35,484 nucleotides of DNA, taken from an uncultured Candidatus Saccharibacteria bacterium (GTDB lineage Bacteria > Patescibacteriota > Minisyncoccia > Phycocordibacterales > UBA9973). A program made the position numbers and the translations under genes. Where the stretch lies: assembly GCA_964596395.1 (NCBI GenBank), contig CAZQSY010000007.1:1-35484 (forward strand), read 5' to 3'. The notes under the pieces were generated by a model. The model worked only from the letters and a program-made list of their open reading frames with translations. It ran no database searches and was not told the origin of the DNA. Positions 4,981-18,928 of the stretch are shown piece after piece; position 1 is the first letter of the stretch; the number at the start of each line of letters is the position of its first letter.

Positions 4981-6147
4981 TTACGGCAGAAGTTCGCGCA
5001 GGTTTGATTTGATGGAATTTTTCAGGTTTTTAAACAGGTTTCTGGCGGAGCCCGGAGGGTAATATTCTTCTTCGCCGTGAGGCAGAGCGATGAGCCCCAG
5101 CGCGTTAAACCACGCCGGGTCGCGGAGCTTTGTTTTTATGCTTCCGAACATTTCAGTCGCTCCGATTTTCGAAGGAAGCTTGAGCGCCGACTTTGAAACC
5201 TCGATGAGCATTGGTATGTTCGCCTCGCCTCCGATGAAAACCACGCCGGCCGGGAGAAGTTCGTTCCTTTTTATTTTTTTCAGATGGTTTCCCACCAGTT
5301 CAAAAATATCGTACAGCCGCGCCTCGATTATTTCGTCTAGCTTTTTTTTAGAAAAACTTTCCGAAGCGCTGCCGAGTTTCAGATGTTCCGCCTCTTCGAG
5401 CGAGACCTTCATGCCGAGCGCTATGTCGTTAGTCACGTCTGACCCCCCGATGGAAAAAGTGTGCAAAGAAGAAAGCGTATCGTTTTCAAAGACCGACAAC
5501 GCGGTGGTTTCCGAGCCGATGTCTACCAGAGCGCATCCGACAATTTTCTGCCTCTGCGAGAGAGCGATGCGGCTGCCGGCAATCGAAGGTATCGCGATAT
5601 CGGTCGGCTCTATCCCGACCGAAGTGACTACCTCCAGAAGGTCTTCGAAATGCGAAGCCGAACAGGTGACAAAAAGCGCTTTTGTCTCAAGCTTAGTTCC
5701 CCGCATGCCTTCGGGGCGGCCAAGAATTTCTTTGCCGTCCAGTTTGAAAGAAACCGGAAAAGTCCCCAGAACTTTTTTGTTGTTCAGGTTCAAATTTGCT
5801 TCGCAATCCTCTAGGGCTTTGGCCACGTCGAGTTCGGTCACTTCGCCGTCGGCTTTTGAAACAATGCCCGTGCCGTTCGAAGTTTCTCCCCGTACCGTCA
5901 CGCTTCCCATCGAAACAGCCGCGCGCCTTATCCTTATGCCCGAATTTTTCTCCGCCGCCGAGACGGCGGCGCGCAAAGAAGAGACGGCTTCATGTATGTC
6001 CGTCACATAGCCGTGCCGCAGGCCTCTGGTTTCCGCTTCTCCTGTGCCTATGATTTTAGGATTTTTTTCTCCCTTCAGGAACTCTCCCACCACTACTCTC
6101 GTTGCCGAGGTTCCTATGTCCACTCCGATGGAAATATTTCTTATCAT
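4981..6147 (-). CDS. ftsA: Cell division protein FtsA
   Basis: Actin-fold phosphate-1 motif ISIGVDIGTS at the N-terminus, later VDIGSETT and VFIGGEANIP. Start set at ATG 6147, which has GGAAG 6 nt upstream. The ORF is open back to 6180. Confidence 0.9.
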   Translation of the reverse strand: MIRNISIGVDIGTSATRVVVGEFLKGEKNPKIIGTGEAETRGLRHGYVTDIHEAVSSLRAAVSAAEKNSGIRIRRAAVSMGSVTVRGETSNGTGIVSKADGEVTELDVAKALEDCEANLNLNNKKVLGTFPVSFKLDGKEILGRPEGMRGTKLETKALFVTCSASHFEDLLEVVTSVGIEPTDIAIPSIAGSRIALSQRQKIVGCALVDIGSETTALSVFENDTLSSLHTFSIGGSDVTNDIALGMKVSLEEAEHLKLGSASESFSKKKLDEIIEARLYDIFELVGNHLKKIKRNELLPAGVVFIGGEANIPMLIEVSKSALKLPSKIGATEMFGSIKTKLRDPAWFNALGLIALPHGEEEYYPPGSARNLFKNLKNSIKSNLRELLP

Positions 6148-15905: not shown

Positions 15906-15921
15906 ATTTTTAATGCTTCTG

Positions 15922-15993
15922 TGACCTTACTGGGAATCGCACCCAGGTTTGGAGCTTGAGAAGCTCCCGTCCTAACTACTAGACGATAAGGCC
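15922..15993 (-). tRNA. tRNA-Glu (anticodon CUC) with a non-canonical T-loop
   Basis: Reverse complement: acceptor GGCCTTA/TAAGGTC, D arm GTCT-AGTAGTTA-GGAC, anticodon stem GGAGC/GCTCC with loop TTCTCAA, T arm CTGGG-TGCGATT-CCCAG. The T-loop reads TGCGATT, with G where the near-universal U55 is expected. Confidence 0.85.
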
Positions 15994-16244: not shown

Positions 16245-16286
16245 AAAAATCAAATAAAAGGTGGCGCGGACCGCAAGATCCGCGCC
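16245..16286 (-). terminator. Rho-independent terminator of the small Lys-rich ORF
   Basis: On the minus strand, GGCGCGGA-ucuugcgg-UCCGCGCC (plus-strand arms 16263-16270 and 16279-16286) is followed by ACCTTTTATTTGATTTTT. Confidence 0.55.
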
Positions 16287-16296
16287 GTCTCACTAG

Positions 16297-16443
16297 CTAG
16301 TAGGAATTGCGCTTTTCGCGCCATTCCTTCCTAGCTGTCTTTTCCGCCTTTTCCGCTTTCTTCCACTCTTTCTTTTGTTGCTTCTTAACCGCCTTTACAT
16401 CCGAGAGTGGCGCGGATGTTGATTTTTTGGAAAACAGACCCAT
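16297..16443 (-). CDS. Small Lys-rich protein (48 aa), below the ORF-track cutoff
   Basis: GGAGGA sits 4 nt before the ATG (16443). Product: MGLFSKKSTSAPLSDVKAVKKQQKKEWKKAEKAEKTARKEWREKRNSY, with stop TAG. An upstream TTGACA lies at 16534-16539 (minus strand), and its own terminator lies downstream. Confidence 0.45.
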   Translation of the reverse strand: MGLFSKKSTSAPLSDVKAVKKQQKKEWKKAEKAEKTARKEWREKRNSY

Positions 16444-16555
16444 AAGGTCCTCCTGTTTAAGGGTGATAAACAAAAATCACTACACAACAAGCATAGTGAT
16501 TTGTCCATATCTATCAAACCAGAGAGAGAGTTCTGTCAAGTTTTTTGTGGATTTA

Positions 16556-16630
16556 CTATTCCTCTTCCCTCGGCTTCTCGAGTGAAATCGCCGACAGTTC
16601 GGGCGAGGTGCCGGAGATGCTGAGTAGGTC
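16556..16630 (-). pseudogene. Orphan duplicate of the rmuC 3' end (last 24 codons plus stop); left direct repeat of the hicBA cassette
   Basis: By hand alignment, 68 of 75 nt are identical to 17136-17210, including a 49-nt perfect core (16566-16614 = 17146-17194). It translates in frame to DLLSISGTSPELSAISLEKPREEE*, against rmuC DVLRIAGTSPELSAISLEKPREEE*. Confidence 0.85.
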
Positions 16631-16651
16631 TTGCCTAACGCAAACGCAAGA

Positions 16652-16846
16652 TTATCTCTTCTTTATGATTGGCACGCCCAAGTCTTCGCATATTTTCCTT
16701 CCGGTATTGGTATTGATTTCCGAATGTCTAGGTACAGTAGAAGTTCTGCCGGTTGCGGGATTGTACCAGACGCTGTGAGCGCTACCTTCTCGCACAAAAA
16801 TGCACCCATATTTGCGGATGTGTTTTACGAGATCAATGTGCTTCAT
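16652..16846 (-). CDS. hicA: HicA-family mRNA interferase toxin
   Basis: 64 aa. LVKHIRKYGCIFVREGSAHSVWYNPATGRTSTVPRHSEI....RKICEDLGV matches the HicA/YcfA pattern. Confidence 0.85.
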   Translation of the reverse strand: MKHIDLVKHIRKYGCIFVREGSAHSVWYNPATGRTSTVPRHSEINTNTGRKICEDLGVPIIKKR

Positions 16847-16852
16847 CGAAAG

Positions 16853-17086
16853 TTAAGCGAATACCGCCAAATTTTCTCTAGTTACAGTAGATTGCTTCTC
16901 AAACTTCCTGGATAGAAAACGGTTGGTTTCAAGTATCAAAAGAAGCGCCTCTTTCAGGTTTTCTTTTGTTTCTTTTATGGTTCGTCCCTGTGTATTTACG
17001 CCGGGAATTTCTTCAATCCATCCCGAATACCATTTGCCCGATTTTTTATATACTGCCGTAAATGTTCTTTTTGTTGACTGCTTCAT
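16853..17086 (-). CDS. hicB: HicB-like antitoxin (UPF0150-type, no obvious DNA-binding domain)
   Basis: Start set at the internal ATG 17086 (77 aa). FTAVYKKSGKWYSGWIEEIPGVNTQGRTIKETKENLKEALLLILE matches the HicB N-terminal fold pattern. It ends 6 nt before hicA. Confidence 0.75.
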   Translation of the reverse strand: MKQSTKRTFTAVYKKSGKWYSGWIEEIPGVNTQGRTIKETKENLKEALLLILETNRFLSRKFEKQSTVTRENLAVFA

Positions 17087-17095
17087 AACTCTTGT

Positions 17096-17125
17096 ATTAT
17101 AGCAAAATTTATATAGTTTAGCCAA
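17096..17125 (-). promoter_or_regulatory. Putative hicBA promoter
   Basis: Minus strand: TTGGCT (17120-17125), an 18-nt spacer, then TATAAT (17096-17101). The -10 ends 9 nt before the hicB ATG, implying a very short leader. Confidence 0.45.
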
Positions 17126-17135
17126 TTTAAGTATG

Positions 17136-18206
17136 TTATTCCTCCTCCCTCGGCTTCTCGAGTGAAATCGCCGACAGTTCGGGCGAGGTGCCGGCGATGC
17201 GGAGGACATCTTTGTCAATTTTCTTCAGTTCTTTGTTCGAGGCGTTGTAGTGGTTTACCACCGTACCCAAGGCATTGCCGAGTTTACCGTGATACTCGTC
17301 GTATGACTTCAGGTGTTTGCCGAGTTCTTCAACCCTTTTGATTATTTCTTTGGCCGATTCTTCGATTTGCAGGGCTTTCAGGCCTTGCAGAACAGTTTGT
17401 AAGTAAGCGAGGAAAGAAGTGGGGGAAGTGATAATAACTTTATATTTTCCGGCCGCGCGCTGAATAAGATTTTCGGAGCTTTCCTCGGTGGCCCCAACCT
17501 TGTTTGTCAGTAAGTCATAATAAATCGCTTCGTGCGGGATGAACATAAAGGCAAAGTCGGTAGTACCGCGCGAGGGCTGTATATATTTTGATGTTTCTAC
17601 GATTCTGTTTTTCAAATCATTCACGAAAATCGTTTCAAGTTTTTTCTTTTCGGCGGGGTCTCTTTCTTCGGCCATTTTGTTGTAGTTTTCAAGCGAGAAT
17701 TTTGAGTCAATCGGGATGATTTTATCTTTCACGAAAACAGCGGCGTCTACGATGGTCTCGTCGGGAAAGGCGTACTGCATCTGGTAGCTTCCGGGTGGCA
17801 AAACATTTTTTAGAACCGTCTCAAGATAATATTCGCCGAGGATTCCGCGCTGTTTCGGATTTTTCAATATATCCTGCAGGTTTTGCAGCTGGTCGGCGAA
17901 AGATATGACTTGCTTGTTGGTCTCATCCAGCCGGGTCAAGCGCTCGGTCACGTCGCGGATTATTTTGTTGGATTCGCTTGAGTGGAATTTAAGGCTTTCG
18001 TTTACCTGCTTGTGCGTTTCGCCGATTTTCTGGTCCACCGTGCGCGAAAGCTCATTCAACTGCTGGAGTATCAGCGTAAGCCCAGTGTCGTTTTTGCCGC
18101 CCTTCTTACCAAGCAAGAGATATACAATAATCCCTCCCGTCAAGATTGCTATGATTATCAGTAAGATATTTTCCATGAATGTTACGTAATGTATTACGTA
18201 ATACAT
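17136..18206 (-). CDS. rmuC: DNA recombination protein RmuC
   Basis: N-terminal TM helix, a long coiled coil, then an RmuC nuclease-like region (GILGEYYLETVL, VDAAVFVKDKIIPIDSKF, FMFIPHEAIY). ATG 18206 overlaps the upstream stop (TAATG). An alternative ATG is at 18176. Confidence 0.88.
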   Translation of the reverse strand: MYYVIHYVTFMENILLIIIAILTGGIIVYLLLGKKGGKNDTGLTLILQQLNELSRTVDQKIGETHKQVNESLKFHSSESNKIIRDVTERLTRLDETNKQVISFADQLQNLQDILKNPKQRGILGEYYLETVLKNVLPPGSYQMQYAFPDETIVDAAVFVKDKIIPIDSKFSLENYNKMAEERDPAEKKKLETIFVNDLKNRIVETSKYIQPSRGTTDFAFMFIPHEAIYYDLLTNKVGATEESSENLIQRAAGKYKVIITSPTSFLAYLQTVLQGLKALQIEESAKEIIKRVEELGKHLKSYDEYHGKLGNALGTVVNHYNASNKELKKIDKDVLRIAGTSPELSAISLEKPREEE

Positions 18207-18209
18207 TAC
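18182..18209. repeat. AT-rich perfect palindrome / tandem TTACGTAA boxes at the exonuclease-rmuC junction
   Basis: GTAATGTATTAC|GTAATACATTAC (18186-18209) is a perfect 24-bp palindrome. The palindromic octamer TTACGTAA occurs at 18182 and 18194. Confidence 0.8.
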
Positions 18210-18928
18210 TTACCTAAATAATACCTCAAAGTATAAACCCAATCCTCGTCTAACTCCGCGTTCTGGATTTTTTGGTCTAACAGCCATTCAAGGTATCCGC
18301 GGTCGGTTTGAAGGATTTCTTCGATTTTACTTCCGTTGTATTTGCCGAATTTTATGGATTTGAAAATGGACGGGTGGGAGGAAATCTCAATCATTTTTTC
18401 GATGACGCTGTCACTTGGAAGTCCGACTTCCAAGTTCTCGGATAGCTTCTTTTTTAGTCGCTCGTAGAGTTTTTCCAATACCAACACATCACCCAAGGCA
18501 TCGTGTGCTGTAGCATCTATTTCTATATCCAAAAAGTAGCGCAGATATTGCAGGTTGTATTTTTCTATTTTCTCGTCTGGGTCTAAGTGTCTTGCCAGCC
18601 GCAGAGTGCAGATAAAATTTTTCGGCTCGATGCCTTCTTTTTTTACCATCAGCAGGTCAAAAGGCGCGTTGTGCGCTATCAGCACCGAATTTTCATTTTC
18701 AAAAAGTTCTTTTATTTTTTCGTATTCTGGGCTGTCTTTGAAAGCCGGTTTTTCTTCCACCATCCTGTTTGAAATATGGTGCACGGCCGAGGCCTCGGGG
18801 GGAATTCTGAGGGGCGGTTTGTATAATCCGGCAAAGCTTTCTTCGCCGTCTTTATAGGCGATCTGGCACAAAAAATCTTTCTCGGTATTGCCGGTGGTTT
18901 CGGTGTCGAAGAAGATTATGTTTTTCAT
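18206..18928 (-). CDS. DEDDh 3'-5' exonuclease (DnaQ/ExoX-like) with a DUF3820-like C-terminal domain
   Basis: Exo I motif FFDTETTG, Exo II LIAHNAPFDL, Exo III HDALGDV. The C-terminal FGKYNGSKIEEI...YLEWLL resembles the ExoX-type C-terminal domain. Confidence 0.82.
   Translation of the reverse strand: MKNIIFFDTETTGNTEKDFLCQIAYKDGEESFAGLYKPPLRIPPEASAVHHISNRMVEEKPAFKDSPEYEKIKELFENENSVLIAHNAPFDLLMVKKEGIEPKNFICTLRLARHLDPDEKIEKYNLQYLRYFLDIEIDATAHDALGDVLVLEKLYERLKKKLSENLEVGLPSDSVIEKMIEISSHPSIFKSIKFGKYNGSKIEEILQTDRGYLEWLLDQKIQNAELDEDWVYTLRYYLGK

Follow-up and report, generated by a model that had tools for sequence, protein, structure and literature searches.

Certain restriction-modification systems lie in bacterial chromosomes between direct repeats of the DNA into which they were inserted, an arrangement described as insertion with long target duplication (Nobusato 2000, Gene 259:99; Furuta, Abe & Kobayashi 2010, NAR, PMC2853133). 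The term was coined for the restriction-modification systems of Helicobacter pylori and was later widened to other bacteria; the target-derived repeats measure 46–423 bp, mobility genes are absent, the hosts are mostly naturally competent, and in the Haemophilus influenzae cases the repeats overlap the 3' end of a neighbouring gene (PMC2853133). The same authors suggested DNA breakage by the cargo as the mechanism and set chance insertion between repeated sequences apart as a separate class (PMC2853133). Here we describe a hicB-hicA (hicBA) toxin-antitoxin cassette that sits between two copies of the rmuC 3' end in a stretch of 35,484 nucleotides (nt) of contig CAZQSY010000007.1 (assembly GCA_964596395.1; the whole stretch analysed is referred to as the window), and whose insertion anatomy, with a repeat that originates in the target, recurs with different targets in the same hicBA family. 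We consider it probable that this cassette arrived by insertion with long target duplication, and neither by site-specific integration nor by transposition with a dedicated enzyme.

Like the restriction-modification cases, the hicBA insertion is a lone addiction module between repeats of tens of bases that are target-derived and specific to their site, that often overlap a gene 3' end and that come with no integrase or transposase. Furuta and colleagues take repeats of >30 bp into account, and the repeat in the window measures 68–76 nt. The differences lie in the cargo, which is ~0.5 kb long and has a toxin of an RNase family, in the repeats of the hicBA set (18–79 nt as opposed to 46–423 bp), in the host, a member of the candidate phyla radiation (CPR), and in the empty site, the only known examples for hicBA belonging to other species in the clade. 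Integration of phages and genomic islands into gene 3' ends is a familiar phenomenon, and the CIME-type elements of streptococci are said to be integrative and att-flanked while having no integrase. The hicBA insertion resembles both in its direct repeats at the 3' end of a gene, in the retention of the gene end and in an insert free of any recombinase; their repeat, however, is a fixed att core that comes with the element and is used again at one attB, whereas the hicBA repeat varies in sequence and length from site to site and both of its copies belong to the host lineage. Vibrio chromosomal integrons carry toxin-antitoxin gene cassettes, which are likewise compact units between repeated sequences, but the hicBA unit has its own promoter and is without an attC-type palindrome, a conserved repeat, an array or intI. 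Insertion sequences (IS) of the IS1634/IS1549 group in Mycoplasma and Mycobacterium reportedly generate long and variable target duplications through staggered cuts, and IS1630, as cited in PMC2853133, makes duplications of 19–26 bp. Variable and unusually long target duplications are common to these elements and to hicBA, but the former encode a transposase and have terminal inverted repeats and the latter has neither. In Microcystis aeruginosa, a ParE/ParD pair is flanked by two identical 152-bp direct repeats (PMC7935541); it is also a type II pair just downstream of a gene and between long direct repeats, but that case is single, its repeats contain inverted repeats, and target origin and recurrence are not established for it. 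A 2026 comparative study attributes the acquisition of toxin-antitoxin systems to transposons and other mobile elements (PMC13617665), and no report of recurrent insertion with long target duplication in a toxin-antitoxin family was found in the open-access literature. An earlier reading of the window, made from its letters only (the sequence-only reading), had judged a toxin-antitoxin module with such long flanking repeats and nothing else to be unusual; this is only partly right, as the arrangement recurs within the hicBA family and matches a kind already known from restriction-modification systems (PMC2853133).

The two copies of the repeat lie on the minus strand, as do rmuC and the cassette, at 17137..17212 (copy A) and 16556..16632 (copy B). 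A repeat search paired 16557–16632 with 17137–17212 over 76 nt at 92% identity (70/76) and a spacing of 580, and blastn-short of the cassette flanks returned the match with E = 6.5e-29. By our own count the secure stretch, 16557–16624 against 17137–17204, is identical at 65/68 positions and includes a perfect core of 49 nt. The first ~8 nt of the repeat are doubtful (AAGACCTA vs AAGATGTC, 5/8 matching) and coincide with a 14-mer that is also present in an unrelated palindrome of a relative (locus L006), so that the secure duplication is one of 68 nt, ending at base 2 of the stop codon. Copy A provides the last 24 codons of the working rmuC and encodes DVLRIAGTSPELSAISLEKPREEE followed by the stop; copy B encodes (D)LLSISGTSPELSAISLEKPREEE and a stop, TAG at 16556–16558. 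Reading frame and stop are kept in both, the stop of copy A being TAA. The 504–512 nt that they enclose (<20 kb) consist of a promoter-like site, hicB and hicA, with nothing further and no other mobile element. There is no second comparable direct repeat elsewhere in the window, and the repeat sequence, found twice there, has zero copies in the 180 loci compared. Searching with RmuC by tblastn, copy B covers only residues 320–346 and hicA abuts it, which rules out that copy B is a piece of a longer decayed rmuC paralogue. The sequence-only reading had named such a paralogue as an outcome that would speak against it, and copy B is instead a discrete fragment. That reading had also given the repeat as 68/75 (16556–16630 and 17136–17210), which is the same repeat placed one or two bases off; the 49-nt core that it reported was reproduced on recounting, as were the preserved frame and stops, and its list of contents (a TTGGCT-18-TATAAT promoter, hicB and hicA) agrees with the Pfam matches and with our reading of the promoter. 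Over 16556–16654, copy B shares the reading frame of hicA; were the hicA TAA read through, the protein would gain 32 residues and end in the RmuC tail, probably by coincidence (one chance in three).

The junctions indicate which copy is native. In both, the repeat ends with GGAATA; copy B then continues with G, completing the stop TAG, and with TAAATCCACAAAAAACTTGACAG, while copy A continues with A, completing TAA, and with CATACTTAAATTGGC, which belongs to the cassette promoter. The rmuC stop TAA (17136–17138) is in effect a hybrid, with TA from the target and A from the cassette. Copy B is followed by the native 3' flank of rmuC (TAAATCCACAAAAAACTTGACAGAAC, 16530..16555, minus strand, with TTGACA at 16534–16539). 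A promoter-like motif [CT]CAC[AT]-N3-14-TTGAC occurs directly after the rmuC stop in 6/82 relatives, the closest one (L099) included, against a background of 10/1640 random windows, and the same motif, in the form of (T)CCACA, a few bases and TTGACA, is present 3' of copy B and absent 3' of copy A. Since the native-type flank follows copy B and not copy A, copy B is at the ancestral position. Judged from these junctions, the insertion point is located between bases 2 and 3 of the rmuC stop codon, copy A is the working end of rmuC, and copy B is the orphaned original end with its native TAG and flank. That copy A is a true rmuC 3' end is seen from its C-terminus, which is conserved in 120 homologues and contains the family-invariant motif KDVLRIAG. 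The 12-residue tail SAISLEKPREEE, peculiar to the window when set against the 120 closest RmuC proteins, is identical in both copies, and therefore neither end was imported with the cassette from a different lineage. The nearly invariant LRIAG is kept in copy A and reads LSISG in copy B; both amino-acid changes are in the non-functional copy B, the other differences being one synonymous change and one base at the stop-codon junction, and the differences of copy B would fit the decay of an unselected copy.

For comparison, we used 80 rmuC loci from species-representative genomes together with the loci of the two closest metagenome proteins (L099 and L100). The closest RmuC proteins are 85–90% identical to that of the window and come from Nomurabacteria, Paceibacterota and Patescibacteria metagenome genomes. 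At every one of the 82 loci (65–90% RmuC identity) the rmuC end is single and hicBA is absent, and the gene order yqeY, usually exoX, and rmuC is held across the relatives; on the strength of this comparison, they can serve as empty sites at the genus level. The insertion into the rmuC 3' end proposed by the sequence-only reading gains support from these single-ended loci and from the native-type flank after copy B, and the rmuC loci lacking hicBA that it had suggested looking for amount to 82/82 of the related loci. No metagenome contig matched a degenerate DNA pattern written for the lineage-specific tail of rmuC, and exact-protein look-ups with the window RmuC (in a 356-amino-acid form) and HicA led to no other contig.

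The last codons of rmuC are also split in several relatives, by small palindromic inserts of 34–37 nt (L099 at 6020–6078, L010 and L038 at the same place, L006 at 6036–6082) that supply a new stop, the old tail and stop remaining just downstream. In L099 the split reads GAAAAACC, the insert CCGCCTGAATGACTGATTATTCAGTCGGGCAGGC, and then AAAACTAGAAGAATAA. In the clade, the very 3' end of rmuC seems to act as an insertion hot spot. In the window, a spacer of 27 nt (16625..16651, minus strand) separates the stop of hicA from copy B; it contains the 14-mer TTAGGCAAGACCTA (16625–16638), which is shared only with the palindrome inserted into the L006 rmuC tail (6054–6067) and could be a remnant of a cassette end, a small mobile palindrome or a chance match.

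A scan of metagenome contigs added 80 hicBA loci, and at each locus the 500 nt upstream of hicB were compared with the 500 nt downstream of hicA. After loci with common flanks were merged into 55 distinct sites and repeats of dispersed motifs were discarded, a unique flanking direct repeat was present at 9/55 sites, the window included. Besides the window (68–76 nt, 65/68 or 70/76 identical), these are L150 (79 nt, 90% identity, a Mur-ligase-like gene's 3' end with its stop), L152 (77 nt, 99%), L158 (49 nt, 96%, the ribosome-binding site plus codons 1–14 of the MIP-channel gene downstream), L163 (34 nt, 91%, the upstream gene's 3' end with its stop), L102 (26 nt, 100%, the 3' end of a cysteine desulfurase gene), L109 (23 nt, 96%, the 3' half of a terminator hairpin), L162 (21 nt, 100%) and L180 (18 nt, 100%, the start of the downstream gene). 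The nine repeats are nine different, locus-specific sequences of 18–79 nt in one common geometry, the upstream copy ending 49–87 nt before the hicB ATG and the downstream copy beginning 2–43 nt after hicA. Among 367 random 430-nt pseudo-cassettes that were placed in related rmuC loci as a control, 2/367 had a repeat at E <= 1e-4 and 0/367 had one of the same geometry (Fisher p = 2.6e-7 and 5.9e-9, respectively, for the comparison with 9/55). The search for the cassette at other sites that the sequence-only reading had recommended was accordingly productive, with 8 further independent sites carrying flanking repeats. At L102, the downstream copy and the next bases encode KKWYN and a stop, the commonest C-terminus among 59 homologues, and the upstream copy reads KKWYT and a stop whose TAA comes from the cassette, so this site follows the same logic as the window. 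The repeats are parts of adjacent genes or terminators and restore the gene ends concerned, and the duplication leaves both flanking genes intact each time. Cassettes after pilM (L081–L090) and mnmA (L091–L098) consist of the same promoter-hicB-hicA unit and have no flanking repeats.

Apparent flanking repeats at L119, L132, L138 and L164 were withdrawn as copies of a dispersed intergenic motif, AATTTAGGCCGAAGTTGA, and a hairpin at L153, considered as a target duplication, was withdrawn as a dispersed GC hairpin; these withdrawals lowered the count from 13 to 9 of the 55 sites. The dispersed-motif cases in the hicBA set are instances of the chance-insertion class mentioned above. The motif AATTTAGGCCGAAGTTGA, often preceded by AAAATAATCA, occurs on the same strand from a few to ~40 nt upstream of many gene starts in one host clade, with 5 copies each in L122, L124 and L126 and further ones in L119, L132, L133, L138, L159 and L164, and it mimics flanking repeats around hicBA. 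At L158 (3–1043), the MIP-channel gene is preceded by a tandem of two hicB-hicA pairs, which belong to different subfamilies, and it is the second pair that has the 49-nt duplication. Between L161 and L163 (from position 2701 of L163), the upstream gene, the upstream repeat and the cassette are identical until the last ~20 nt of hicA and the downstream DNA is unrelated, as would result either from recombination or from a jump of the assembly between copies of the cassette. There are many contigs that end at or inside a hicBA cassette.

The cassette itself begins with a left end of 50 nt (17087..17136, minus strand) that starts with ACATACTTAA and includes a promoter-like site, with a -35 element TTGGCT (17120–17125), an 18-nt spacer, and a TG preceding the -10 element TATAAT (17096–17101). 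The antitoxin gene hicB (16853..17086, minus strand, 77 amino acids) comes first and is co-oriented with the toxin gene hicA (16652..16846, minus strand, 64 amino acids) across a 6-nt gap, and the same pairing is seen in 94 related loci. HicB matches PF21748 (UPF0150/HicB) with 28.1 bits vs a cutoff of 27.3, and Pfam detected its N-terminal UPF0150/HicB fold only and no C-terminal DNA-binding domain; the protein is a minimal HicB. HicA matches PF07927 (HicA_toxin) over residues 5–58 (1.1e-11, 45.1 bits vs a cutoff of 27) and is a predicted toxin of the mRNA-interferase (RNase) family. The idea that HicB, with its RNase H-like fold, might be a nuclease or integrase was dropped for want of evidence. 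At E <= 1e-5 there are 1646 homologues of HicB, of which the closest (84–86% identical) are in CPR bacteria; none of its relatives was found on a viral contig, the best plasmid match is 43% identical, and no vector was identified. At the nine sites with unique repeats, the DNA between the copies measures 461–517 nt, and in an alignment of eleven related copies the homologous stretch runs from the -35/-10 region, ~45–50 nt ahead of the ATG, as far as the stop of hicA. In base composition the cassette is not anomalous, and in 17 flanked copies the score for terminal inverted repeats is never above the shuffled 95th percentile.

These properties do not suit the established classes of mobile elements. 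The sequence-only reading had compared the flanks to attL/attR; this is contradicted by nine sites with nine unrelated repeats of 18–79 nt that share no core and consist of target DNA, by the lineage-specific tail in both copies at rmuC, and by the lack of a reused attB. Its statement that no integrase or transposase is present holds for the insert and, by Pfam, for the proteins of the whole 35-kb window. An IS, a miniature inverted-repeat transposable element or a mobile insertion cassette was rejected on account of the missing terminal inverted repeats in the 17 copies and of duplications that are 18–79 nt long and not short and fixed. An integron gene cassette was rejected as well, there being no inverted repeat by hicA, a single cassette and no integrase (the assessment was made with no attC covariance model); a GTTAGGC adjoins copy B, but the order of the core sites and their pairing do not fit attC.

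Integration of the Campbell type is the first alternative to insertion with long target duplication. In this scheme, a circle carrying the cassette and ~70 nt of the rmuC end, released by illegitimate excision in a same-species cell with the cassette next to rmuC and then taken up, would integrate by a single RecA crossover and leave the homology duplicated. The mismatches on both sides of the 49-nt core are as a crossover inside it would give, the species-specific tail in both copies is what a same-species donor would give, and the 27 additional nt behind hicA may be flanking DNA of the donor that was carried along; the mismatches are, however, equally well explained by decay of copy B, and the scheme presupposes that a simple insertion had already occurred at this place, so that the arrival of the cassette at rmuC is left unexplained. 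Moreover, repeats of 18–26 nt, as found at some of the other sites, are too short for efficient RecA recombination, being poor substrates in view of the minimal homology lengths of this reaction, which speaks against homologous integration as a general route. For the window itself it is possible, and overall we regard this explanation as unlikely. A slightly smaller chance is given to a non-autonomous element moved in trans by an enzyme encoded elsewhere in the genome, either a transposase with long, variable staggered cuts like those of the IS1634/IS1549 group or an integrase, the hitch-hiking that the sequence-only reading had proposed. It would account for a discrete cassette of 461–517 nt at the nine unique-repeat sites, for a left end 49–50 nt before the ATG at three of them with similar first bases (ACATACTTAA and CACTTAA), and for contigs that often break at the cassette, as expected of a multi-copy sequence. 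Against it stand the lack of terminal inverted repeats in 17 flanked copies and of a conserved core in the repeats, a right end that varies from 2 to 43 nt after hicA, the use of the same site in 0/82 rmuC loci, and the lack of any recombinase Pfam match in the 35-kb window.

A local rearrangement with no insertion at all, in which the cassette was already downstream of rmuC and the repeat arose by tandem duplication and partial deletion or by gene conversion, seems very improbable to us. For structures of a similar kind, tandem duplication with subsequent recombination is accepted as an alternative (PMC3457768), but it takes at least two events per locus, yet at 9 unrelated sites the cassette lies exactly between the copies, and the window holds no remnant of a second cassette. 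An assembly artefact or a chance repeat can be practically dismissed: the contig is of metagenome type and related contigs often end at the cassette, but the two copies differ at 3–6 positions and the DNA to which copy B is joined is unique cassette sequence, which excludes a collapsed cycle or a strain chimera, the same architecture is present in 8 other independent assemblies, and the E-value given above speaks against chance.

Under insertion with long target duplication, one unit of ~505 bp (promoter, hicB, hicA and a short tail) would have been inserted in a CPR chromosome of the Paceibacteria/Nomurabacteria type, with duplication of the 68 (at most 76) target bases upstream of the insertion point; the upstream copy would have stayed on rmuC, closed by a new TAA, and the downstream copy would have been orphaned with the native TAG. 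The cassette DNA may have been taken up from outside or copied from another locus, and illegitimate joining by host functions may have followed at a break with staggered ends, at a single-strand gap or where replication switched templates, and there fill-in synthesis would produce a duplication of arbitrary length. As HicA belongs to an RNase family, DNA cutting by the cargo cannot be the cause here. Persistence of the insertion could be due to the toxin-antitoxin pair, which penalises its own loss, and to the duplication, which spares both neighbouring genes. The 49-nt core would permit precise RecA-mediated excision as a 580-bp circle and re-entry at an empty site of the same species. In this model, the junction of the empty site would be GAGGAATAG directly followed by TAAATCCACAAAAAAC, with the upstream rmuC reading CTCCGCATCGCC, and the junction of a circle or tandem would run from hicA through TTAGGCAAGACCTA and the repeat to ACATACTTAAATTGGC.

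Several points weigh against this explanation. No same-species empty site was found, the closest RmuC being 90% identical, and no empty-site allele of L102 was found through the cysteine desulfurase, as 8/8 members of its cluster end in the junction-derived KKWYT. No unique flanking repeat is present at 46/55 sites, so that most insertions must either be old or have come about with no duplication or by another route. The position of the left end is constant, 49–50 nt before the ATG at three independent sites (the window, L102 and L109), which is a hint of defined ends and so perhaps of a trans-acting enzyme. The step at a break, a gap or a template switch is one that we infer outright, and competence is assumed from the gene content of relatives, with genes of the type IV pilus and competence type. 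A broader proposition, that the hicBA family is a self-sufficient selfish module which spreads in CPR genomes by a recombinase-free host pathway, possibly coupled to uptake, with the long target duplications as a handle for excision and re-entry, is put forward tentatively and is on balance doubtful.

The hicBA scars at nine independent sites, left by a minimal cassette with neither a mobility gene nor end repeats, have a bearing on how chromosomal toxin-antitoxin systems move. They link the spread of toxin-antitoxin systems to an insertion route so far documented for restriction-modification systems, and they remove DNA cleavage by the cargo itself as an explanation of that route. If the hicBA family is indeed a selfish module of the kind proposed above, toxin-antitoxin systems would share the virus-like life cycle that has been put forward for restriction-modification systems, and the cargo would not need to cut DNA. 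The repeats also provide a simple mark in the sequence by which recent gains of genes could be dated and counted in CPR genomes, otherwise held to be streamlined.

The remainder of the window is made up of housekeeping genes. The rmuC gene (17136..18176, minus strand, 346 amino acids with the ATG at 18176; Pfam RmuC, 2.4e-52; its junction read from the sequence) follows a gene for an exoX-like exonuclease (18206–18928, minus strand, Pfam RNase_T/ExoX). Downstream of copy B there is a small lysine-rich open reading frame (16297–16443), a terminator-like hairpin (16263–16286) and a tRNA-Glu(CTC) gene (15921..15993, minus strand), a context marker that bounds the variable rmuC-murF interval; in relatives, the distance from rmuC to the convergent murF varies from 0.5 to 3.3 kb, and this interval often opens with tRNA-Glu(CTC) on the same strand as rmuC. 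Beyond this tRNA gene, the window has an open reading frame with no assignment, mscL (Pfam MscL) and the convergent murF. The other genes include ftsZ, ftsA, greA, a class II tRNA synthetase gene, mraZ, rsmH and a PBP gene, as well as yqeY, obg, gatB, fba, atpB/atpF and those for L25 and a release factor, and an Rfam scan returned tRNAs only.

The exoX-rmuC junction is a second variable spot alongside the rmuC-murF interval. In many relatives the gap is just a few bases, and in L003, L005, L013, L022, L023, L037 and others the junction has 0.7–1.5 kb of extra DNA. Other inserted genes lie between duplications of 45–103 nt in L014 (714–1412), L063 (2169–2582), L064 (6596–8663) and L028 (1957–4176), an example being an open reading frame of 199 amino acids between exoX and rmuC of L014; the duplications are terminator hairpins or intergenic segments, and duplication-flanked insertion may not be limited to hicBA. 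In the window, a near-perfect 30-nt palindrome (18183–18212, core GTAATGTATTAC/GTAATACATTAC) overlaps the exoX stop and spans the gap to rmuC.

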